Source: Myxococcota bacterium
Lineage (GTDB): Bacteria; Myxococcota_A; UBA9160; UBA6930
Direction of reading: 5' to 3'
Assembly: GCA_965223415.1 (NCBI GenBank)
Contig: OZ245002.1
Location: forward strand, 2,496,001-2,560,000
Length of the DNA: 64,000 bases
Shown: in pieces, positions 11,815 through 52,601 of the stretch
How the letters are laid out: every line of letters starts with the position of its first letter
Numbering within the stretch: the stretch's first letter is position 1
Made by a program: the position numbers and the translations under genes
Notes under the pieces: model-generated
Told to the model about the DNA's origin: nothing
Database searches by the model: none
The model's input: only the letters and a program-made list of their open reading frames with translations

Positions 11815-14082
11815 ATGCCGACGATCGAGACCACGCCCGACCTCGTGCGGAGCACCTACGAGAAGGTCCGCCAGAACCTGGAGATCGTGCGACGTCGGCT
11901 CGGGCGACCGCTCACCTACGCCGAGAAGATCCTGCTCGGCCACCTGAACGACCCGCAAGGGCAGGAGCTCGACCCGGGCGAGAGCTACCTCGAGCTGCGG
12001 CCCGACCGGGTGGCCATGCAGGACGCCACCGCCCAGATGGCGCTCCTCCAGTTCGTCTCCTCCGGACGCGAGGAGACCGCGGTGCCCAGCACGGTGCACT
12101 GCGACCATTTGATCCAGGCCTACCAGGGTGCCAGCCAGGACATGGAGACCGCCGAGGTGACGAACCGCGAGGTCTACGACTTCCTGCGCTCGGCCTCGGC
12201 ACGCTACGGCATCGGCTTCTGGGGCCCGGGGGCCGGCATCATCCACCAGGTGGTGCTCGAGAAGTACGCCTTCCCGGGCGGCATGATGATCGGCACCGAT
12301 TCCCACACGCCGAACGCCGGCGGCCTCGGCATGTTCGCCTGCGGCGTGGGTGGCGCCGACGCGGTGGACGTGATGGCCGGCTTCCCCTGGGAGGTGCTGT
12401 ACCCGAAGCTGGTCGGCGTTCGCTTGACCGGAGAGCTCAGCGGATGGTCGGCGCCGAAGGACGTGATCCTGAAGGTGTGCGAGCTGCTCACGGTGAAGGG
12501 CGGCACGAACCGGGTGGTCGAGTACTTCGGTGCCGGCACGCGCTCGCTCTCCTGCACCGGCAAGGGAACGATCACGAACATGGGCGCCGAGCTCGGCGCG
12601 ACGACCTCGATCTTCCCCTACGACGAGCGCATGGAGCTCTATCTCAAGAGCACCGAGCGCGAGGCCCTGGCGGACCTGGCCAACGAGTACGCGGACCTGC
12701 TCGGTCCCGACCCGGAGGTGGCGAACGAGCCCGACGGTTTCTTCGACGAGATCGTCGAGATCGATCTTTCCACCCTCGAGCCCCACATCGTCGGCCCCCA
12801 CACGCCGGACCTCGCGCGGCCGGTCTCGCGGATGGCGGCGGACGTGGAGGAGAAGGGTTACCCCGCCAGCCTCACCTCGTGCCTGATCGGAAGCTGCACG
12901 AACTCGTCCTACGAGGACCTGTCGCGAGCGGCGGACGTGGCGCGGCAGGCCAGCGCCCGCGGCGCCGGGGCGAAGACGAAGCTGTGGTGCACCCCCGGCT
13001 CCGAGCAGATCCACCGGACGATCCGCCGCGACGGCCAGCTCGAGGCGCTGGAAGGGATCGGAGCGGTGGTGCTGGCGAACGCCTGCGGGCCCTGCATCGG
13101 CCAGTGGCGGCGCGACGACATCGAGAAGGGCGTCCCGAACTCGATCCTCACCTCGTTCAACCGGAACTTCCCGAAGCGAAACGACGGGAACCCGGAGACC
13201 CTGGCGTTCATCGGCAGCCCCGAGATCTGCGTGGCCTACGCCCTGGCGGGGACCCTGGCCTTCGATCCCCTGACCGACGAGATCGAGGCCGCCGACGGAA
13301 CGCGCTTCAAGCTCTCCCCGCCCGCACCGGCGCCGGACGTGCCGGAGAACGGGTTCGTGGCGAGCAGCGAGGGCTACCAGGCGCCGCCGGCGGATCGCGC
13401 GGGCCTGGAGGTCGAGATCAGCCCCGAGTCCGAGCGCCTGGCGTTCCTGGAGCCCTTCGCGCCCTGGAGTGGCCAGGATTTCGCCGAGCTGCCGCTCCTC
13501 CTGAAGGCCAAGGGCAAGTGCACCACCGACCACATCTCGATGGCCGGCCCGTGGCTGCGCTTCCGGGGCCACCTGGATCGCATCAGCGACAACATGTACA
13601 TCGGCGCGATCAACGCCTACACCGGCAAGGCGGGCGAAGGCCTCGACCAGCTCTCCGGCGAGGCGGGCGTCTCCTTCCCGAAGATCGCCCGCCACTACAA
13701 GGCCGAGGGCCTGCGCTGGGTCGTCGTCGGCGACGAGAACTACGGCGAGGGCTCGAGCCGCGAACATGCGGCCATGGAGCCGCGGCACCTGGGCTGCGCC
13801 GCCGTGATCGTCCGCAGCTTCGCCCGCATCGCCGAGACGAACCTGAAGAAGCAGGGCGTGCTCCCTCTCACCTTCACGGACCCGGCCGACTACGACAAGG
13901 TGCAGGAGCACGACCGCATCAGCATCACCGGCCTCACTGCCCTCGCCGAAGACCAGCCCGTGACCGCTACCCTCCACCACAAGGACGGCAGCACCGACCA
14001 GTTCCCCGTCATCCACTCCCTCAACGACGACCAGATCGCCTGGTTCCAGGCCGGCTCCGCCCTCAACATCCTCCGCCGTTAA
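11815..14082 (+). CDS. Aconitate hydratase (mitochondrial-like clade)
   Basis: [38 protein letters not shown] and [20 protein letters not shown]. Confidence 0.96.
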
Positions 14083-14156
14083 GTTAGGGGCCGGTTCCGT
14101 TTGTTAAGTTGTCGCTTGTTGTGTTGGGGGCCGGGTCCGCTTGTTGCGTTGTCGGG
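14078..14156 (-). repeat. Dispersed repeat, two tandem units (reverse orientation)
   Basis: GGGGCCGGTTCCGTTTGTTAAGTTG and GGGGGCCGGGTCCGCTTGTTGCGTTGTC; same family as the copies at 19133, 21740 and 51714. Confidence 0.85.
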
Positions 14157-19132: not shown

Positions 19133-19176
19133 GACAACGCAACAACTTAACAAACGGAACTGGCCCCCAACTTAAC
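19133..19176 (+). repeat. Dispersed repeat copy
   Basis: GACAACGCAACAACTTAACAAACGGAACTGGCCCCCAACTTAAC. Confidence 0.88.
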
Positions 19177-20800
19177 TCGGGTAGCGGTGGACGATGGGGA
19201 GGCGGCGGCCGCTGCCGAAGGCCTTGGGGCTGACGCGAAGGACGAGCGGGGACTGGCGGCGCTTGTACTCGTTGCGGTCGAGGCGGCGGACGATGCCGGC
19301 GGCGTCTTCGCGGGTGGCGCCCGGCGGCGGGGTGATGGCGGCGGCGCCCAGGCCCCCTTCGATGGCCTGCTCGAGGACGGCGTCGAGGACGTCGTAGGGC
19401 GGCAGGTCGTCGCTGTCGAGCTGGTCCGGCGCCAGCTCGGCCGAGGGCGGCTTGTCGATCGTGTTCTGCGGGATCCGCTCGCCGTTCTTGTTGGCGTGGC
19501 GGGCGATGGCGTAGACGTCGCGCTTGTAGACGTCGCCCAGCACGGCGAGGCCACCGACCGTGTCGCCGTAGAGCGTGCAGTAGCCGACCGAGAGCTCGCT
19601 CTTGTTGCCGGTGGCGAGGACGAGCCGGTTCTCGGCGTTGGAGACCGCCATCAGGATCGCGCCGCGGATGCGCGACTGGATGTTCTGCTGGGCGAGTCCG
19701 TAATCGTCCTTCGCGCCGAACAGCTCGGCGAAGATCGCGCGGTAGGCCTCGTAGACCCGGCCGATCTCCACCTCGCGCACCTCGATGCCCAGGTGCCCGC
19801 CCAGCCCGAGGGCGTCGTCGACGCTGTGCTCCGAGGAGAAGGGGCCGGGCATGGCGACGCCCAGCACCTGATCCGCGCCCAGCGCCTCCACGGCCAGGTG
19901 CGCCGTCACCGCCGAGTCGATACCGCCGGACAGCCCGATCACGGCCGCGTGGGGCAGGCCCTGTTTGCGGAAGTAGTCGTGGATGCCCAGCACCAGGCCG
20001 CGCTCGAGCTGGCTCACCCGGTCGAGGTCCGGAACGTCGTCCGGGAGGCGCCCGGGCTCGCTGCCAGGCAGCTCGACCACCTCGAAGGCCTCCTCGAAGA
20101 GAGGGAGCTGAGCGAGGACGCGGCCCTCCTCGTCCACCACGAAGGAGCCGCCGTCGAAGATCAGCTCGTCGTTGCCGCCGACCTGGTTGGCAAAGACGAT
20201 CGGCACGCGGTGGCGGGCCGCGAGCTCGCCGAACATCCGGCGGCGCTCGGCCGGCTTGCCCGCGTGCCACGGGGAGGCCGAGAGGTTCAGCACCACCTCC
20301 GCGCCGGCGGCCGCCAGCTCGCCGACCGGGTCGCGGCCGTAGCCGATCTCGAAGGACCAGGCGTCTTCGCAGACCGTGAGGCCCAGGGTGCCGATGGGAG
20401 TGCGCTCGGTGGCGTCGACGAAGTAGCGGTTCTCGTCGAAGACGTCGTAGGTTGGGAGCAGGGTCTTGGCCTGGACGGCGACGCGCTCGCCGTCGCGGAG
20501 CAGCACCGCGGCGTTGACCAGGCGCTTGGCGCGCTGGGGCTCGGCCCGGAGCACGGCGCCGACGGCGAGCTCGATCCCCTTCGAGCAGGGCGCGAGTGCT
20601 TCGAGCTCCCGGAGCTGGTCGCTCACGAAGCCCTCGCGCTCGAGCAGGTCCATCGGCGGGTAGCCGGTGAGGCAGAGCTCCGGCAGGACGCACAGGTCGG
20701 CGCCCGCTCGCTTCGCACGCTCGGCCGCCTCTTCCACGCGGCGGCGGTTGCCGGGGAGATCGCCCACGGTGGGGTTGATCTGCGCGATCGCGATCTTCAC
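19172..20800 (-). CDS. nadE: Glutamine-dependent NAD+ synthetase
   Basis: Nitrilase-fold domain (PEL, K, VCED) plus SGGIDS, NIQSRIRG, TGNKSE and PPSAEL. Confidence 0.96.
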   Translation of the reverse strand: MKIAIAQINPTVGDLPGNRRRVEEAAERAKRAGADLCVLPELCLTGYPPMDLLEREGFVSDQLRELEALAPCSKGIELAVGAVLRAEPQRAKRLVNAAVLLRDGERVAVQAKTLLPTYDVFDENRYFVDATERTPIGTLGLTVCEDAWSFEIGYGRDPVGELAAAGAEVVLNLSASPWHAGKPAERRRMFGELAARHRVPIVFANQVGGNDELIFDGGSFVVDEEGRVLAQLPLFEEAFEVVELPGSEPGRLPDDVPDLDRVSQLERGLVLGIHDYFRKQGLPHAAVIGLSGGIDSAVTAHLAVEALGADQVLGVAMPGPFSSEHSVDDALGLGGHLGIEVREVEIGRVYEAYRAIFAELFGAKDDYGLAQQNIQSRIRGAILMAVSNAENRLVLATGNKSELSVGYCTLYGDTVGGLAVLGDVYKRDVYAIARHANKNGERIPQNTIDKPPSAELAPDQLDSDDLPPYDVLDAVLEQAIEGGLGAAAITPPPGATREDAAGIVRRLDRNEYKRRQSPLVLRVSPKAFGSGRRLPIVHRYPS

Positions 20801-20869: not shown

Positions 20870-21781
20870 ATGCCCGAGATCGTCGGACCGAGCTCCCACT
20901 TCTACGTCTCCCAGCGTCTGCGGCTCCACTACGTGGATTGGGGCAACGAGAGCGCGCCGCCGCTCCTGCTGATCCACGGAGGCAAGGACCACGCGCGCAG
21001 CTGGGACCCGATCGCCCGGGAGCTGCGGCGGGACTGGCACGTGATCGCCCCGGACCTCCGCGGCCACGGCGACAGTGCCTGGGCCATCGGGGGCAGCTAC
21101 GGCCTGCCGGACTTCGTGCTCGATATCGCCCAGTTGGTGGAGGCTCTCGAGCTCGCGCCACTCACGATCGTCGCGCACTCGCTGGGCGGCGCGGTGGCGC
21201 TCCACTACGCCGGCATCTACCCCGAGAAGGTGGCGCGGCTCGTCGCGATCGAAGGTCTCGGGCCGGCGCCGGAGCTCGCGAAGCGCATGGCCGAGACGCC
21301 GGTGCACGAGCGCTTCCGCAGCTGGATCGGCTCGATGCAGGAGCTCGCCGCCCGGCATCCGCGCCGCTACCCGTCGATTGACGACGCCGCGAAGCGCATG
21401 CAGGAGGTGAACTCCTTCCTACCGCCGGACCTCGCGCGCCACCTCACCCTGCACGGCGTGGCTCGCAACGAGGACCACTCCTTCAGCTGGAAGTTCGACA
21501 ACTACGTCCGGGCGTTCTCGCCGGTACGCCTGCGGGGCGACGACGTGCGAGCCCTCTGGGCCCGCATCACCTGCCCCGTCCTCCTCGTCCGCGGCAGCGA
21601 GAGCTGGGCCAGCGATCCCGAGCGCGATGGCCGCATCGCCCACTTCCAGAACGCCCGCCTCGAGAACGTCGAGCGGGCCGGCCACTGGGTCCACCACGAC
21701 CAGCCCGAAGCCTTCCTCGCCGCCCTCCGCCCCTTCCTCACAACGCAACAACTTAACAAACGGAACCGGTCCCTATCTTAA
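20870..21781 (+). CDS. Alpha/beta hydrolase
   Basis: HGG, AHSLGG and AGHWVHHD. The last codons are repeat-derived. Confidence 0.9.
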   Translation: MPEIVGPSSHFYVSQRLRLHYVDWGNESAPPLLLIHGGKDHARSWDPIARELRRDWHVIAPDLRGHGDSAWAIGGSYGLPDFVLDIAQLVEALELAPLTIVAHSLGGAVALHYAGIYPEKVARLVAIEGLGPAPELAKRMAETPVHERFRSWIGSMQELAARHPRRYPSIDDAAKRMQEVNSFLPPDLARHLTLHGVARNEDHSFSWKFDNYVRAFSPVRLRGDDVRALWARITCPVLLVRGSESWASDPERDGRIAHFQNARLENVERAGHWVHHDQPEAFLAALRPFLTTQQLNKRNRSLS

Positions 21782-21785
21782 CAAC
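21740..21785 (+). repeat. Dispersed repeat copy
   Basis: ACAACGCAACAACTTAACAAACGGAACCGGTCCCTATCTTAACAAC. Confidence 0.88.
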
Positions 21786-26362: not shown

Positions 26363-26881
26363 ATGACCCTCCGATTGTCCACTCTCGCCAGCCCCCGCTC
26401 GCTCCTGCTGCTGGCGATAGCGGCGCTGATGGGTGCGCCGATCATCGTTGCGGAGCCGGCTTTCTCCGACCAGCCCCGGAAGATGTCCGTCACCCGCCGG
26501 CGGGACTACAGCTACGAGCGCGAGAAGCGCGAGCGCGAGCGCGCGGACGAGCGCGAGAAGTGGCGGGCGCACCGCGAGAAGCAGACCGACAAGTTCCTCG
26601 ACTACCTCGAAGAGGAGGAGTTCGAGGAGGTGAAGGCGCGGCGCGTCGGCACCAACGGCAAGGCTTGCATGTACGGCGTGAACGGCGAGGTGATCCACCG
26701 CCCGGCCGGCGCCATCTGCGACCGCGCACCCGGCCCTCGCCCGGAGGGCGCCGCCGCCGCCCCGGCCGCACCCGCCGCCCAGCCCACCACCTCCGCCCCG
26801 GCCAAGGAGCAGACCAAGGGCCGCTGCATCTACGGCAAGAGCGGCAAGCTCCTCTACGCCGCCCCCGACGCCGAGTGCTAG
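26363..26881 (+). CDS. Hypothetical exported protein with two CxYGxxG repeats
   Basis: Signal peptide, charged helix, and 'CMYGVNGEVI' / 'CIYGKSGKLL' repeats. Confidence 0.65.
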   Translation: MTLRLSTLASPRSLLLLAIAALMGAPIIVAEPAFSDQPRKMSVTRRRDYSYEREKRERERADEREKWRAHREKQTDKFLDYLEEEEFEEVKARRVGTNGKACMYGVNGEVIHRPAGAICDRAPGPRPEGAAAAPAAPAAQPTTSAPAKEQTKGRCIYGKSGKLLYAAPDAEC

Positions 26882-26882
26882 C

Positions 26883-26950
26883 GAGACAAGGGGACGTTCC
26901 TTTCTGTCTCACGGCGAGCCGTGAGACAGAAAGGAACGTCCCTATGTCTC
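26883..26950. repeat. Long palindromic REP-like element at a convergent junction
   Basis: Perfect 25-nt arms GGGACGTTCCTTTCTGTCTCACGGC / GCCGTGAGACAGAAAGGAACGTCCC, plus outer GAGACA/TGTCTC. Confidence 0.85.
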
Positions 26951-27232
26951 ACTCAGCTCGTTCATCGCGGCGGCGAGCTCGACGTCGCTGCGGGTGATGC
27001 CGCCGGAGTCGTGGGTCGTGAGATCGACGACGACGCGGTTCCAGACGTTGGACCACTCGGGGTGGTGGTCGCGCTTCTCGGCGACGAGCGCCACGCGGGC
27101 CATGAAGCCGAAGGCCTGGTTGAAGTCGGCGAAGCGGAACTCCCGGTGGAGCTTGCCCGCCAGGACGCTCCAGCCCTCGAGCTCCGCCAGCGCCGCAGCG
27201 AGCTCGGCCTCGCCGAGGACCGGCCGCGCCAT
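26942..27232 (-). CDS. 4a-hydroxytetrahydrobiopterin dehydratase
   Basis: '[26 protein letters not shown]'. Confidence 0.93.
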
Positions 27233-32876: not shown

Positions 32877-33268
32877 CTTGTGTGTTCCGCCTAGCGCCAG
32901 ATTCGGGATAGGGTAGGTGTTTCGATCGGGGAGACCGTAGCTGCCTGAAGCCAGGTGAGCCTGAGAGTTGGATGAATCCCCCGTCCTTCTCGCCATGCCT
33001 TGAAGTATGCGAGGCCCGAGAGCCCGGATCTACAAAGTCGGTAGACGAGGATTCAGGGTCGGGCGACCGAGCGAGATTCTACACCGAGGAGGGAAACGAG
33101 CGGGCCGGGAATGGGGGGCTGGCCCAGGCCTTGGTTCGTCGGCGCAGCGCCGCGCGTGTGCGTCGAGGTGAAGGGCATCTACCACCTCGAGCCGTGTCTG
33201 TGGCCGGACGACGCAGCTCGGATCGAGGTGATGGTGGCGAACCCGCGAGCCACGAAGGATCTTGGCTC
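32877..33268 (+). pseudogene. IS110 remnant (left end, bridge-RNA region and transposase fragment)
   Basis: The non-coding part aligns with 37360-37500. The fragment 'ARVCVEVKGIY..EVMVANPRA' matches the transposase at 37531. Confidence 0.8.
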
Positions 33269-35528: not shown

Positions 35529-36786
35529 GGTACGGTCCGGCCACATCCTTTACAGGAGTCCAGGGACATCGTTTACACCCGGGGGATGCCCTGGATGGAA
35601 ACGGATGCAAGGAAGCAGCGGCAGGCGTTCGTTCGCGACTACGAGAGCGGTCAGTGGTCGATGAGCGAGCTGTGTCGGCGGTATCGTGTCTCCCGGCCCA
35701 CAGGCTACAAGTGGCTCGGGCGCTTCGAGTCGGAGGGGGAGGCCGGCCTGGAGGAGAGGTCCCGTGCGCCGGCTCGCTGCCCGCACAGGACGCCAGCGAG
35801 CGTGGAGCGCAAGATCCTGGCCCTTCGCGCCGAGTACGGCTGGGGTGCGAAGAAGATCTTGCAGGTGCTCGAGCGCCGGTACCCGAAGATGCAGAGGCCC
35901 GCGCGAAGCACGGTGAACGCGATCCTCGATCGCCACGGCAAGCTGCGCAAGAACCGACGTCGGAAGAAGTGGTCGCATCCCGGCGCTGCGTCGCTGTCGA
36001 CCGACCACCCGAACCAGGTGTGGCCCGCGGACTTCAAGGGCCAATTCAAGATGCGCAACGGTCGCTACTGCTACCCGCTGACCGTGACCGACCACTGCAG
36101 CCGCAAGCTCCTGATGTGCCGCGGGCTGCACTCGATTCGCACCGAGGGCGTGAAGCCGCTGTTTCGGGAGCTCTTTCGCGAGGTCGGACTTCCCGAGGCG
36201 ATTCGCACCGACAACGGTGCCCCCTTCGCATCGACCGGGATCCACGGCCTGTGCGAACTCAACGTGTGGTGGATGAAGCTCGGCATCGTGCACCAGCGCA
36301 TCCGTCCTTCGAGCCCCCAACAGAACGGGCAGCACGAGAGGATGCACAAGGACCTCAAACGCGAGGCGACCCGCCCGCCTGGCGCGAACCTCAACGTCCA
36401 GCAGCGGATGCTCGAGGCCTTTCGTCGACGCTACAACGAGGAGCGGCCGCACGAAGCACTCGGTGGAGCGTTTCCCGAGGAGCGCTACGAGCCCTCGCCG
36501 CGGCCGTACCCCAGTCGCCTCTCGCCGCCGGAGTACCCTGCGCAGATGGAAGTGCGCCGCGTGAGCCGGGCCGGGACGTTTCGGCTGAAGGCGAAGCAGC
36601 CCTTCCTGAGCAACGCACTGGCCGATGAGTACATCGGACTTGAAGAGATCGGCGACGGCATCTGGAGCATCGTCTACTACGAGACGATCCTGGGCCGCAT
36701 CGACGAGCGCAGCAGGAAGATCACCGGAGTCTGAGAGGTGTAAACGATCTACCTGGACTTGTGTAAAGGATCAGCCGGACCGGTCA
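35529..36786 (+). mobile_element. IS481-family element
   Basis: Long imperfect IRs (CGGTCCGGC..ATCCTTTACA..GTTTACACC and its reverse complement); inserted between a cassette stop codon and its attC. Confidence 0.85.
35586..36734 (+). CDS. IS481-family transposase (HTH + rve)
   Basis: MPWME start, 'WPADFKG', 'RTDNGAPF' and 'QQNGQHERMH'. Confidence 0.93.
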   Translation: MPWMETDARKQRQAFVRDYESGQWSMSELCRRYRVSRPTGYKWLGRFESEGEAGLEERSRAPARCPHRTPASVERKILALRAEYGWGAKKILQVLERRYPKMQRPARSTVNAILDRHGKLRKNRRRKKWSHPGAASLSTDHPNQVWPADFKGQFKMRNGRYCYPLTVTDHCSRKLLMCRGLHSIRTEGVKPLFRELFREVGLPEAIRTDNGAPFASTGIHGLCELNVWWMKLGIVHQRIRPSSPQQNGQHERMHKDLKREATRPPGANLNVQQRMLEAFRRRYNEERPHEALGGAFPEERYEPSPRPYPSRLSPPEYPAQMEVRRVSRAGTFRLKAKQPFLSNALADEYIGLEEIGDGIWSIVYYETILGRIDERSRKITGV

Positions 36787-37309: not shown

Positions 37310-37515
37310 TCTGAGCAGGCTCTTCGGGCCTGAGTGAGACTCCGAGATGGGTTCCCGGGAAAGGCCGTCGCTGCCTGAAGCCAGAGAGCTTGTCCGTTAG
37401 ATGGGCCTCCCGCCCTCGTCACCCATGCCGTGGAGTATCCGAGGCCCGAGAGCCTGCGTCTACAAGGTCCGTAGGTGAATGTGCAGGGTCGGGAGACCCG
37501 GGTCCCAGCTTATCA
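37310..37515 (+). ncRNA. Putative bridge RNA
   Basis: Guides CGCTGCCT (37369), TGTCCGTTAG (37391), GGAGTATC (37432) and TACAAG (37461) match the target and donor ends. RNA boundaries are approximate. Confidence 0.8.
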
Positions 37516-50272: not shown

Positions 50273-51301
50273 ATGGCAGACCGCCATGCGAACGATCCGC
50301 GCTGTGTCGCGGTCGTCGGGGCCACCGGGGCCGTCGGGGAGGTGGTGCTTCGGCTGCTGGCCGAGCGCGGCTTCCCGGTGGGCGAGCTCCGGGCCCTGGC
50401 GAGCGAACGCTCCGCCGGCACGACGGTGCGCTTCGCCGACCGGGACGTCGAGGTTCAGGAGGCCGTGCCCTCCGCCTTCGACGGCGTCGACTTCGCCTTC
50501 TTCGCCGCCACCGGCGGGCTCTCGAAGACGCTCGCGCCGGAGGTGGCGAAGCGCGGAGGCGTGGCCATCGACAAGTCGAGCACCTGGCGCCTCGACGAGC
50601 AGGTGCCGCTCGTGGTGCCGGAGATCAATCCGGACGCGCTCGAGAAGCACAAGGGCATCGTCTCGTGTCCGAACTGCACGACCATCGGCTTCGTCATGGC
50701 CCTCGAGCCGATCCGGCGCGAGGCGGGCGTGAAGTCGGTCGTCGTGACGACGCTGCAGGCGGTGAGCGGCTCGGGCAAGCCGGGCATCGACGAGCTGGCG
50801 AGGCAGAAGGCGGAGCTCGAGCGCGGCGACGCGCCGACGACCGGCTTCTACCCGAAGCCGATCGTCGAGAACGCCCTGCCCCTCTGCGAGAGCTTCCGCG
50901 ACGACGGCTACTCGACCGAAGAGGTCAAGCTGCTCCACGAGACTCGCAAGATCACCGGCCAGCAGGACGTGGACGTGACCATGACCTGCGTGCGCATCCC
51001 GGTTCCGGTGGGCCACTCGGCGACCATGCTGGTCGAGACCGAACGGCCGATCACGCCGGAGCGGGCGCGCGAGATGCTGGCAGCGTTCCCCGGCGTACGG
51101 GTCGTCGACGACCCGGCGGAGAACGTGTTCCCCACGGCCCGCGACGTGCACGGGAGCGACGAGGTGCTCGTGGGGCGCGTGCGCAAGGACCTGGTCAGCG
51201 ATCGGCTGTGGATGTGGCAGGTCTCGGACAACCTTCGCAAGGGCGCCGCGACCAACGCCATCCAGATCGCCGAGGAGATGGTTCGCCGCGGCCTCCAGTA
51301 G
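50273..51301 (+). CDS. asd: Aspartate-semialdehyde dehydrogenase
   Basis: GATGAVG, PNCTT, CVRIPVPVGHS and DNLRKGAA. Confidence 0.96.
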   Translation: MADRHANDPRCVAVVGATGAVGEVVLRLLAERGFPVGELRALASERSAGTTVRFADRDVEVQEAVPSAFDGVDFAFFAATGGLSKTLAPEVAKRGGVAIDKSSTWRLDEQVPLVVPEINPDALEKHKGIVSCPNCTTIGFVMALEPIRREAGVKSVVVTTLQAVSGSGKPGIDELARQKAELERGDAPTTGFYPKPIVENALPLCESFRDDGYSTEEVKLLHETRKITGQQDVDVTMTCVRIPVPVGHSATMLVETERPITPERAREMLAAFPGVRVVDDPAENVFPTARDVHGSDEVLVGRVRKDLVSDRLWMWQVSDNLRKGAATNAIQIAEEMVRRGLQ

Positions 51302-51347
51302 CCGACCGAGCTCTGCCGAGGGAGCGCCCGGGGCGGGAACGTCCCGG

Positions 51348-51743
51348 GTGCTCCTTCGCTACGCCGCGTTCCAGCTACCGGGGCTGGCCGTGTTCTCCCT
51401 CGGCGTCGCTGCGGCCCACGAGTGGCTCGAGCTGCCGGCGGACGTCGCCCTGGTGGCGGTCGCCTTGTGGATGGCGAAGGATGCGCTGATGTTCCGCTTC
51501 GTGCGCAAGGCCTACGAGCCCGGCGACGGGCGCACGCCCCGGGACGTGCGGGACGCCCTGGCGGTCGCCACCGACGGCCTCGACAGCGAGGGCTACGTGC
51601 GCATCGGCTCCGAGCTCTGGCGCGCCCGCCGGGCCGAGGGCTGCCCGCCCATCGCCGCCGGCGAAACCGTCCGCGTCGTCGACGTCCGCGGCCTCACCGT
51701 CCTCGTCGACCGGGACAACGCAACAAACGGAACCGGCCCCTAG
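51348..51743 (+). CDS. NfeD family protein
   Basis: TM segments then 'GYVRIGSELWRAR..GETVRVV..GLTVLV'. The C-terminus NATNGTGP is repeat-derived. Confidence 0.8.
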   Translation: MLLRYAAFQLPGLAVFSLGVAAAHEWLELPADVALVAVALWMAKDALMFRFVRKAYEPGDGRTPRDVRDALAVATDGLDSEGYVRIGSELWRARRAEGCPPIAAGETVRVVDVRGLTVLVDRDNATNGTGP

Positions 51744-51750
51744 CGCAACA
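51714..51750 (+). repeat. Dispersed repeat copy between co-directional genes
   Basis: GACAACGCAACAAACGGAACCGGCCCCTAGCGCAACA. Confidence 0.85.
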
Positions 51751-52601
51751 TGGGTGGTTCCGGCGTGACGGCTCTCGGGAGGCTTCTGGGGCTGCTTCGG
51801 CTCGAGGGGTTGGACCGGGACCTGTTCGTCGGGGATACGCCGCGGGGGGAGGGGCGGCTGTTCGGGGGGCTGGTGGCGGCGCAGGCGGCGGTCGCGGCGA
51901 TGGAGACGGTGGAGGACCGGGCGCTGCACTCGCTGCACGCCTACTTCCTCCGCCCGGGGCTGCACGAGACGCCGATCCGCTTCGTGGTGCATCGCATCCG
52001 GGACGGGCGCTCGTTCGCGACGCGGCGGGTGGTCGCCTATCAGGCCGGCGAGGCGATCTTCAATCTCTCGGCGAGCTTCGTGCAGCCCGAGGAGGGCATC
52101 TCCCACCAGGCGCCGGCGCCGGAGGCACCGGGGCCCGAAGGGCTCCCGGACTGGGAGGAGCTGCGCTCCCAGATGCTCGGCCGACCGGACGCCGTGCGGC
52201 ACCAGCCGATCGAGGTGCGCGTCTGCGACCCGGACGATCCCGACGGCCATCCCCAGGAGCCGCGCAAGCGGGTCTGGTTCCGGGCCGCGGGCAGTGTCCC
52301 CGACGACCCGCGCATCCACACGGCGCTGCTCGTCTACGCCAGCGACCGCACCCTCCTCTCCACGGCCTCGCGGCCCCACGGCCTGCCCTGGGGCAGACGG
52401 ATGGTCGCGAGCCTCGACCACGCGGTGTGGGTCCACCGCGAGCCCCGCTTCGACGATTGGGTGCTCTACGCCTCCGAGAGCCCGGTCGCCCACGCCGCCC
52501 GCGGGCTGGTGCTGGGCGCCCTGTACGACCGGGCCGGACACCGGATGGCCTCGGTCGCCCAGGAGGGCCTCATCCGGATCCCCCGGAACGATGTCGGATA
52601 G
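51750..52601 (+). CDS. tesB: Acyl-CoA thioesterase II
   Basis: 'LFGGLVAAQA', 'SLHAYFLRPG', 'ASLDHAVW' and 'QEGLIR'. Confidence 0.92.
   Translation: MGGSGVTALGRLLGLLRLEGLDRDLFVGDTPRGEGRLFGGLVAAQAAVAAMETVEDRALHSLHAYFLRPGLHETPIRFVVHRIRDGRSFATRRVVAYQAGEAIFNLSASFVQPEEGISHQAPAPEAPGPEGLPDWEELRSQMLGRPDAVRHQPIEVRVCDPDDPDGHPQEPRKRVWFRAAGSVPDDPRIHTALLVYASDRTLLSTASRPHGLPWGRRMVASLDHAVWVHREPRFDDWVLYASESPVAHAARGLVLGALYDRAGHRMASVAQEGLIRIPRNDVG

Follow-up and report, generated by a model that had tools for sequence, protein, structure and literature searches.

Repeats of the repetitive extragenic palindromic (REP) type in a Myxococcota bacterium (GTDB lineage Myxococcota_A; UBA9160; UBA6930) and its genus each centre a zone of about 600-700 nt in which the silent codon positions of the neighbouring genes are altered, C exceeding G before the element and G exceeding C after it. 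This footprint is linked to the elements, is absent from orthologous junctions free of repeats and from the REPs of Escherichia coli, depends on the direction of transcription and has a base pattern of its own, in a genus in which Rho was not found. It is described here from a window of 64,000 nt (bases 2496001-2560000 of the single 5.83-Mb contig OZ245002.1, 71% G+C, of the 97%-complete genome GCA_965223415.1), in which a copy of the dispersed repeat family R is situated at the junction of a gene for an NfeD-like protein and a gene for an acyl-CoA thioesterase II-like protein, called tesB here (Table 1; positions are those of the window unless the genome is named). By its sequence, R appears to be a REP-type element and one of four families (R, a, b and c), each with its own gene for a tyrosine transposase resembling the REP-associated tyrosine transposases (RAYTs).

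The NfeD-tesB junction

The C-to-G inversion of strand skew that the initial annotation had reported at this repeat was confirmed as real. Its hand counts of four-fold degenerate codon positions (26 C to 3 G before the repeat, 35 G to 4 C after it) came close to our recount, which gave C 29 and G 3 at 51573-51707 and G 33, C 6, T 5 and A 0 at 51750-51929, as compared to a genome baseline of C 578,600 and G 436,237 at coding-strand four-fold sites (C57:G43, skew -0.14); the binomial tails against this baseline are 3.8e-5 before and 1.0e-7 after the repeat. Moreover, in an unbiased scan of the genome with arms of 200 nt the site scored 50, a value reached by 0.12% of genome positions, and it is because of the local counts, the binomial tails and this rank in the top 0.12% that the observation stands. 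Genes were called by our own crude codon-score method, which slightly favours C-ending frames and may have misplaced other starts; it began tesB at 51810 and omitted the first 20 codons, and the scan rank was reached nonetheless. The fading of the bias with distance, described initially as well, was found again: the bias is gone by about 51950 rightwards and by about 51570 leftwards.

The repeat had been placed between two genes of the same strand. Both genes do lie on the forward strand, but the repeat overlaps the two of them: the NfeD-like gene owes its TAG stop and the nine codons preceding it to the R copy, which extends into the ATG of tesB. An insertion of R appears to have swapped the tail of the NfeD-like protein and to have broken a coupled stop-start, because the three closest relatives lack the repeat and have an overlap of ATGA between the two genes. 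The consensus of R reads approximately GACAAC[GC/TT]AAC-AAACGGAACCGGCCCC-TAAC[GC/TT]AAC, and as single-stranded DNA the single unit at the site folds worse than shuffled sequences on both strands (z +2.0 and +1.8), i.e., it forms no hairpin. Rfam, promoter and terminator scans gave no match at the site (terminator scan over 51300-52100). An intrinsic terminator, consisting of a G+C-rich hairpin and a U run, was rejected as a candidate, since no terminator-like site was present in this interval and the single R unit has no hairpin.

The footprint across the genome

A profile of R was built from 103 core matches, and an nhmmer search of the genome with it returned 108 copies, 50 on the plus and 58 on the minus strand, with a gene 3' end on the downstream side of 93 of them. 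Summed over these copies in repeat orientation, the four-fold skew is -0.60 just before and +0.79 just after the repeat and returns to baseline by about 400 nt. Among the 100 usable copies (at least 15 informative sites on each side), 86 show the same polarity, with C exceeding G before and G exceeding C after the repeat, and the skew is strong (at or beyond 0.4) on both sides in 59, as compared to 60 of 4394 control junctions lacking any of the four families within 300 nt; 30 further copies are strong only after the repeat and seven only before it, and 16 of the 4394 controls are strong with the opposite polarity. The tie between flip and repeat that had been proposed from the one site is thereby borne out. 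The footprint is not particular to R, however: the R copies carry the flip as had been suggested, but the three other RAYT-linked, palindromic families carry the same profile. The profiles of R, a and b are near-identical (about -0.8, -0.7, -0.55, -0.47 and -0.3 per 50 nt), and that of family c is weaker (-0.54, -0.49 and -0.32 per 50 nt).

The whole-genome scan detected 104 strong C-to-G flips and a single strong G-to-C flip at the same threshold; R copies account for 31 of the 104, and most of the remaining flips coincide with copies of families a, b and c or with related short hairpins. Skewed gene ends, defined by a four-fold skew of -0.6 or below over the last 60 codons, number 306 among 4415 (about 7%), and 190 of them are found within 150 nt of one of the four families; the remaining 116 have no four-family core within that distance, although many of them carry repeat remnants as judged by eye. 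Expressed per family, a skew of -0.6 or below is present in 70% of the 123 genes with R within 150 nt of their 3' end, in 73% of 73 genes for family a, in 55% of 69 for b and in 25% of 53 for c, as compared to 3% of the 4097 genes without such a repeat. The age of a copy was considered as a driver and rejected, the hidden Markov model score of R copies being uncorrelated with flip size (rho 0.08, n = 100), and so was a general gradient along genes, the skew of all genes staying between -0.10 and -0.19 over their first and last 120 codons.

At four convergent junctions (genome positions 248494, 438321, 761460 and 4590843) the two genes are separated by a 1-nt gap or overlap by 4 nt, and both gene ends are strongly C-rich. 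These may be former repeat sites, or skew may be possible without a repeat.

Direction of transcription

Over the four families, 235 repeat clusters have 358 flanks transcribed towards the repeat and 81 transcribed away from it. In the former, the coding-strand skew in successive steps of 50 nt is -0.75, -0.64, -0.49, -0.43, -0.28, -0.25, -0.22 and -0.13, the footprint of such genes declining over about 350 nt. In the away-flanks, read on the strand that runs towards the repeat, it is -0.13, -0.16, -0.10 and -0.02 and then +0.09 to +0.19, where the baseline on that strand is about +0.14 to +0.19; the effect has the same sign and length scale as in the towards-flanks and about one third of the log-odds. 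The skew of towards-flanks is alike whether the partner on the other side of the repeat runs towards it, runs away or is empty (-0.58, -0.59 and -0.55, respectively). Away-flanks whose partner runs towards the repeat are shifted (-0.11, 73 flanks), and no shift was seen at repeats between divergent genes (+0.14) in a small sample of three repeats with six flanks. The initial statement that gene orientation cannot explain the flip was right only in part, since genes running towards a repeat show about three times the log-odds of genes starting at one and the six divergent flanks show no shift.

At most same-strand junctions the upstream gene alone is affected: where the upstream skew is -0.6 or below, a downstream skew of +0.4 or above is found at nine of 72. 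The tesB flank (C5:G30 by our gene caller) is the third most skewed among 79 away-flanks, which makes the site at which the flip was noticed an unusual one and the tesB side an extreme case of the weaker, away-transcribed side of the footprint. The distance from repeat to gene start was rejected as the cause of the spread among away-flanks (rho -0.10).

Base pattern of the bias

The G+C content at third codon positions near repeats is 0.94-0.97, without any fall, and A and T are balanced. At four-fold sites, the 234 strongly skewed gene ends analyzed for composition contain 82.6% C, 12.2% G, 2.1% A and 3.1% T, as compared to 51.0% C, 40.4% G, 4.1% A and 4.5% T at other gene ends, which corresponds to base weights of 1.62 for C, 0.69 for T, 0.51 for A and 0.30 for G. 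Two-fold sites, which played no role in the selection of skewed genes and are independent of the four-fold sites, change as well: A in NNR codons rises from 9.7% to 18.3% and C in NNY codons from 90.2% to 95.0%. The first and second codon positions shift slightly in the same direction, and all three site classes are described by the single set of weights. Next to repeats, the skew of non-coding positions is no more than mild (-0.19 to -0.07). The initial annotation had read the footprint as mutational, left by recurrent opening, nicking or repair synthesis of the DNA. That reading was not demonstrated: there is no A/T skew, the G+C content is kept and the two-fold factors match a plain preference of C over G. 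Selection on the transcript fits at least equally well.

Four further candidates were rejected. Deamination of cytosine in an exposed strand disagrees with the absence of A/T skew and with the undiminished G+C content. For selection connected to G-quadruplexes, C4 runs number 932 as compared to 1127 ± 19 in shuffles that keep local composition, i.e., they are avoided, and the quadruplex motifs are not in excess (32 as compared to 29.9 ± 2.8). A palindrome extending into the flanks would have favoured true flank pairs over mismatched ones, and these fold alike (-83.6 and -83.3 kcal/mol, 128 junctions). Guarding of an RNA hairpin from competing structure was dismissed by reasoning, because unstructured single units share their profile with palindromes of 70 nt.

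Comparison with other genomes

The synteny of the NfeD-like gene and tesB is kept in ten relatives, none of which has a repeat at the junction; the relatives compared are fragmented, incomplete metagenome-assembled genomes (MAGs) whose contigs break at repeats. Within the genus, tesB orthologues are 79-86% identical. The last 57 codons of the NfeD-like gene show C33:G4 here and 20:11, 20:8, 22:6, 20:16 and 26:10 in the same-genus orthologues, and tesB up to about codon 61 shows G34:C6 here and 16:14, 16:13, 12:14, 15:10 and 20:15 in the orthologues. At three further R junctions, nine orthologous junctions from the same-genus genomes G001-G005 carry no repeat and are unskewed, on their far sides too; the counts are 31:6 here against 19:9, 17:11 and 20:11, 24:4 against 10:16, 14:13, 16:19 and 22:13, and 21:6 against 14:12 and 13:12. 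Over the four loci, all 14 repeat-free orthologous junctions are thus without the flip, including those of G005, which owns the R family and has no copy at two of these junctions. A comparison with orthologues lacking the repeat had been suggested initially; because silent sites are saturated (amino-acid identity 53-86%), the order of events is unreadable from it.

Elsewhere, the R family was found in one genome, G005, with 45 copies. In the 200 nt after 15 of these, third positions contain G579:C185, as counted by a method free of gene calls, and several of the G005 copies occupy junctions that carry R, b or c in the present genome. Another genome of the genus, G004, is without R and has a different palindromic family of 90 nt (…CAACCAGCGGGGACGGGGTTTACAATTGACTTG…) that abuts the stop codons of convergent genes; five of its 86 gene ends are strongly skewed, and three of the four most skewed abut this family. 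Gene ends neighbouring the palindromic family of G004 were also noted to be C-rich. In samples of 400 kb, skewed gene ends amount to 0 of 285 in G016, 3 of 276 in G007 and 1 of 252 in G025. G007 and G025 have hardly any dispersed repeats, and G016, of the sister genus, has a different dispersed, partly tandem repeat with the core GCAAGCGAAGCGCGCAGCGAG, along with long C runs; this repeat gave 23 matches with up to three mismatches in 400 kb and shows no flip.

In E. coli K-12, where the REP sites were taken via a 12-mer repeated in REP loci as the record has no REP features, no C enrichment was found: the skew is +0.27 at 90 REP-adjacent gene ends (65 gaps) and +0.20 at 86 controls. The footprint is therefore not general to REPs.

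Repeat families and RAYT-like genes

A gene of the HUH/RAYT type cognate to the repeat, which the initial annotation had suggested looking for, is present. The Pfam profile Y1_Tnp matches eight places in the genome, and the match at genome positions 3528523-3528852 is flanked by inverted R copies at -479 and -441 (minus strand) and at +424 (plus strand); three other Y1 genes are flanked likewise by families a, b and c, one family each. These three families are long palindromes with 101, 89 and 82 half-sites, respectively, and a and c contain ...GGAACGTCCCC, as seen by eye and without alignment to published families. R copies occur as single units, as tandem pairs and as inverted pairs that form long hairpins.

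The four RAYT-like proteins have about 273 amino acids and a C-terminal helix-turn-helix (HTH), and the other three are 32-40% identical to the R-linked protein. They score 37.1, 28.1, 31.1 and 24.2 bits with Pfam Y1_Tnp (cut-off 23) and 59.3, 55.5, 57.8 and 33.6 bits with NCBIfam REP_Tyr_transpos, under its cut-off of 80. The motif N-H-x-H is invariant among them and a Y-V-x-x-N-P stretch is present in three of the four. The gene belonging to family c (genome positions 3235897-3236736) is interrupted near residue 95 by a frameshift, with residues 1-97 in one frame and about 95-265 in another, which is possibly a sequencing error; the family with the weakest skew footprint is the one whose RAYT-like gene reads frameshifted.

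Rho and replication

The present genome gave no match to the Rho profile PF07497, and its best match to TIGR00767 reached 56.6 bits, the cut-off being 509. The Rho domain was likewise found in none of the five same-genus genomes and in none of seven genomes from five other genera of the taxonomic family, all incomplete MAGs in which a missing match leaves absence unproven. It is present in six other genomes of that family and in all 12 genomes of the order's other families (18 of 31 genomes overall). From this distribution, it looks as if Rho was lost in one clade of a high-G+C lineage. Rho loading sites were rejected as an explanation of the footprint: the composition fits, but Rho was not found, and a sister genus likewise without Rho and lacking these repeats has 0 of 285 gene ends skewed.

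The footprint had been likened to the C-rich to G-rich polarity of a bidirectional replication origin. This analogy found no backing, the skew being alike on the two strands into which the cumulative skew divides the genome (-0.571 and -0.583) in a test of limited power, since the cumulative skew is weak and lopsided. The cumulative GC skew is lowest at 5.80 Mb and highest at 4.82 Mb, which implies either very unequal replication arms or a weak and disturbed replication skew.

Features of the window

Besides the copy at the NfeD-tesB junction, further repeats with the same flip are present in the window (Table 1). The two tandem R copies on the minus strand show G:C at four-fold sites of 11:26 before and 24:2 after one copy and of 9:34 and 21:4 for the other, and the palindrome of family c was listed by the scan as flip peak 2522930 with a score of 55. 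In another part of the window, a 76-nt direct repeat, 80% identical between 32993-33068 and 37423-37498, 4.4 kb apart, encloses a 35-nt inverted repeat (35545-35579 and 36737-36771, 89% complementary); together they may constitute a small mobile element.

Table 1. Genes, repeats and skewed tracts of the window (positions within the 64,000 nt).
Feature	Position	Strand	Basis
Aspartate-semialdehyde dehydrogenase-like open reading frame (ORF)	50273-51301	+	Named from sequence only
NfeD-like gene, 131 aa	51348-51743	+	ORF; Pfam NfeD 48.6 bits
Acyl-CoA thioesterase II-like gene (tesB), 283 aa	51750-52601	+	ORF; Pfam Acyl_CoA_thio 120.6 bits
C-rich, G-poor silent positions, 3' end of NfeD-like gene, flank transcribed towards the repeat	51573-51710	+	Four-fold counts
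G-rich, C-poor silent positions, 5' end of tesB, flank transcribed away from the repeat	51750-51929	+	Four-fold counts
Family R copy	51711-51751	+	nhmmer 40.3 bits; one of 108 copies
R-derived tail of NfeD-like gene through tesB start codon	51714-51752	+	Sequence
Two tandem R copies, same flip	14076-14155	-	nhmmer 44.5 and 26.5 bits
R copy between convergent genes, same flip	19139-19177	+	nhmmer 35.8 bits; G:C 1:28 before, 35:7 after
R copy between convergent genes, same flip	21744-21783	+	nhmmer 38.8 bits; G:C 1:31 before, 36:4 after
Family c near-perfect 74-nt palindrome, convergent junction, strong flip	26880-26953	.	Inverted repeat; fold -36.1 kcal/mol, z -12.2

Relation to known systems

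By appearance, R belongs with the REP/RAYT and TIRtron systems, which are known. As in the REP/REPIN-RAYT systems of E. coli and Pseudomonas, as far as these are covered by the available text of the sources (Bertels and Rainey, 2011; PMC3116915, PMC3337134), there are about 100 short copies per family, lying outside genes or at their very ends, mostly at 3' ends and between convergent genes; the copies are single, tandem or in inverted pairs, and each family has one Y1 (HUH) transposase-like gene with inverted copies flanking it. The present elements differ in that the single R unit is no palindrome, only inverted R pairs and families a-c being palindromic, in that the proteins have about 273 amino acids with the C-terminal HTH and remain under the NCBIfam cut-off, and in the strong polar C/G footprint, none being seen at the 90 REP-adjacent gene ends of E. 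coli K-12.

TIRtrons are described as genes of TIRYT tyrosine transposases with long terminal inverted repeats that form repeat families, and a GTAG or CGTC tag is given for one end of REP units (Di Nocera et al., 2013; PMC3733652). Two features are shared with them: families a, b and c consist of long palindromes with their arms placed inversely on either side of a Y1 gene, and, as in that survey, convergent or same-direction ORFs have their 3' ends within about 20 bp of the repeats. The coexistence of four abundant families is a difference. The word 'skew' has no occurrence in the available text of this survey of REP families in more than 80 species (PMC3733652), skew around such repeats is unmentioned in the accessible part of PMC12642595, and a literature search whose coverage excluded subscription journals returned no report linking REP, REPIN or RAYT to local GC skew. 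A skew footprint around REP-type repeats, for which no earlier description was found, would be new whichever cause holds.

The flank before the element also resembles the rut sites of Rho-dependent terminators, known for the C>G 'bubble' (PMC6144790, PMC6407284). Shared are the C-rich, G-poor RNA upstream of a transcript end and the preference order C > U > A > G, which the base weights measured here follow. The difference lies in the Rho factor, which was not found here, and in the zone, which takes up about 300 nt of coding sequence and accompanies a mobile repeat. Switches of GC skew are otherwise known from replication origins and from R-loop-prone human gene ends. With both, the present sites share that the excess of G or C switches at a defined point, and with the human gene ends additionally the G-rich non-template strand beyond the transcript end. 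They differ from both in numbering hundreds per genome, in a far stronger effect (four-fold skew down to -0.8) and in having neither an A/T partner skew nor a dependence on the replication strand.

Origin of the footprint

The candidate mechanisms are selection on the nascent RNA and repair linked to transcription or to the RAYT. We lean, tentatively and at somewhat less than even chances, towards transcript selection in this Rho-less lineage at putative pause or end sites of RNA polymerase. The polymerase would pause or end at the element, to which the HTH-bearing RAYT may be bound, and selection would then, Rho being missing, favour a nascent RNA rich in C and poor in G along roughly the final 300 nt ahead of the element. 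Such RNA is unstructured and a poor former of RNA:DNA hybrids, so that stalled transcription would leave no R-loops; the same pressure, in a weaker form acting downstream or on the antisense side, would account for the tesB flank. Base weights that cohere across site classes, with neither A nor T gained, suggest selection of this kind. Also in its favour are the link to the elements, a polarity that follows transcription, the 14 unskewed orthologous junctions without a repeat, the failure to find Rho in the genus and the absence of C enrichment in E. coli, which has both Rho and REPs. Several points weigh against it: pausing or termination at the repeats is itself putative and inferred. Ahead of an RNA end, a tract rich in C and poor in G marks the loading of Rho, which was not found here; moreover, loss of Rho alone is without effect, judging from the Rho-less sister genus that lacks such repeats and has no skewed end among 285. 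An RNA hairpin cannot be the obstacle, because single R units, which form none, match the profile of 70-nt palindromes. The weak footprint of family c, with its frameshifted RAYT-like gene, fits any enzyme-dependent model, a mutational one included; it is not clear how the RNA would profit from the mirror effect in genes that run away from the repeat, an effect very strong at tesB; and the smooth decay over 350 nt resembles a process of limited tract length as much as a signal.

A mutational footprint is a serious competitor, although we would not call it probable. Arrest of the polymerase at the repeat, or nicking by the RAYT of the strand that transcription has opened, would lead to repeated excision and resynthesis of one strand over a few hundred nucleotides, with errors of G opposite G, G opposite T and T opposite G. 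On the RNA-like strand these would convert G to C or A, and T to C. With a dependence on transcription added, this is the interpretation given initially. All the shifts observed, G to C, G to A and T to C, can be written as such misinsertions on the complementary strand. It would explain that skew occurs only where the repeat is present, that structurally unlike repeats sharing just a RAYT partner have an identical profile, that family c is affected least, that the decay is smooth over about 350 nt with a mirror effect beyond the repeat, and that E. coli, with another RAYT type and with Rho, is without skew. Yet it needs a spectrum led by G:C-to-C:G transversions and strong enough to keep four-fold sites at about 83% C and 12% G, without A/T skew and without A or T increasing, and we know of no bacterial repair path with such a spectrum; non-coding positions beside the repeats are only mildly skewed, and the agreement of four-fold and two-fold sites under one set of weights is expected for a preference but a coincidence for a change in rates. 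The more specific proposition that REP-type repeats and their RAYTs drive a site- and strand-specific substitution, G to C over about 300 nt, in this Rho-less genus seems to us rather unlikely, if well worth keeping in mind.

That causation runs the other way, with repeats inserting or surviving preferentially at junctions that were skewed already, such as the ends of transcription units, is improbable. It draws on the strong flips at convergent junctions with no room for a repeat, e.g., the 1-nt gap at genome position 248494, on the 116 of 306 skewed ends without a family core within 150 nt and on junctions that are occupied by R in G005 and by another family, b or c, in the present species. 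However, the 14 repeat-free orthologous junctions at four loci are all unskewed, many of the apparently repeat-less skewed ends hold remnants, and the relatives lacking such repeats are nearly without skewed ends (0 of 285, 3 of 276 and 1 of 252), with the order of events itself hidden by the saturation of silent sites. Local, origin-like DNA synthesis or exposure of a strand during replication, for which the C-then-G polarity speaks, is very improbable, given that the effect follows the direction of transcription, is the same on either cumulative-skew strand within the limited power of that test, lacks the T>A partner skew expected from strand exposure and recurs at 104 strong flip sites in the genome. 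Chance, codon usage or an artefact of gene calling can practically be dismissed: although the codon-score caller slightly favours C-ending frames, both genes at the site are backed by Pfam and by orthologues, strong flips are 104 to 1 in favour of the one polarity, the count free of gene calls in G005 gave G579:C185 after R copies, and the same pipeline remained blank in E. coli and three relatives.

Significance

REP elements and RAYT genes are among the commonest repeats of bacteria, and their role in the cell is still argued. In the genome analyzed here, such repeats leave a large, polar and easily measured mark on the neighbouring genes, by which tools based on codon usage or skew could be locally misled. 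If repair is the cause, the mark would represent a site-specific, strand-biased mutational process triggered by a domesticated transposase, and if substitution is driven by the RAYTs themselves, it would be a mutator or repair footprint undescribed in bacteria and a direct read-out of RAYT/REP activity in the cell. If selection on the transcript is the cause, as we tentatively prefer, the mark would point to a means by which transcription is ended or kept in check where Rho is missing.

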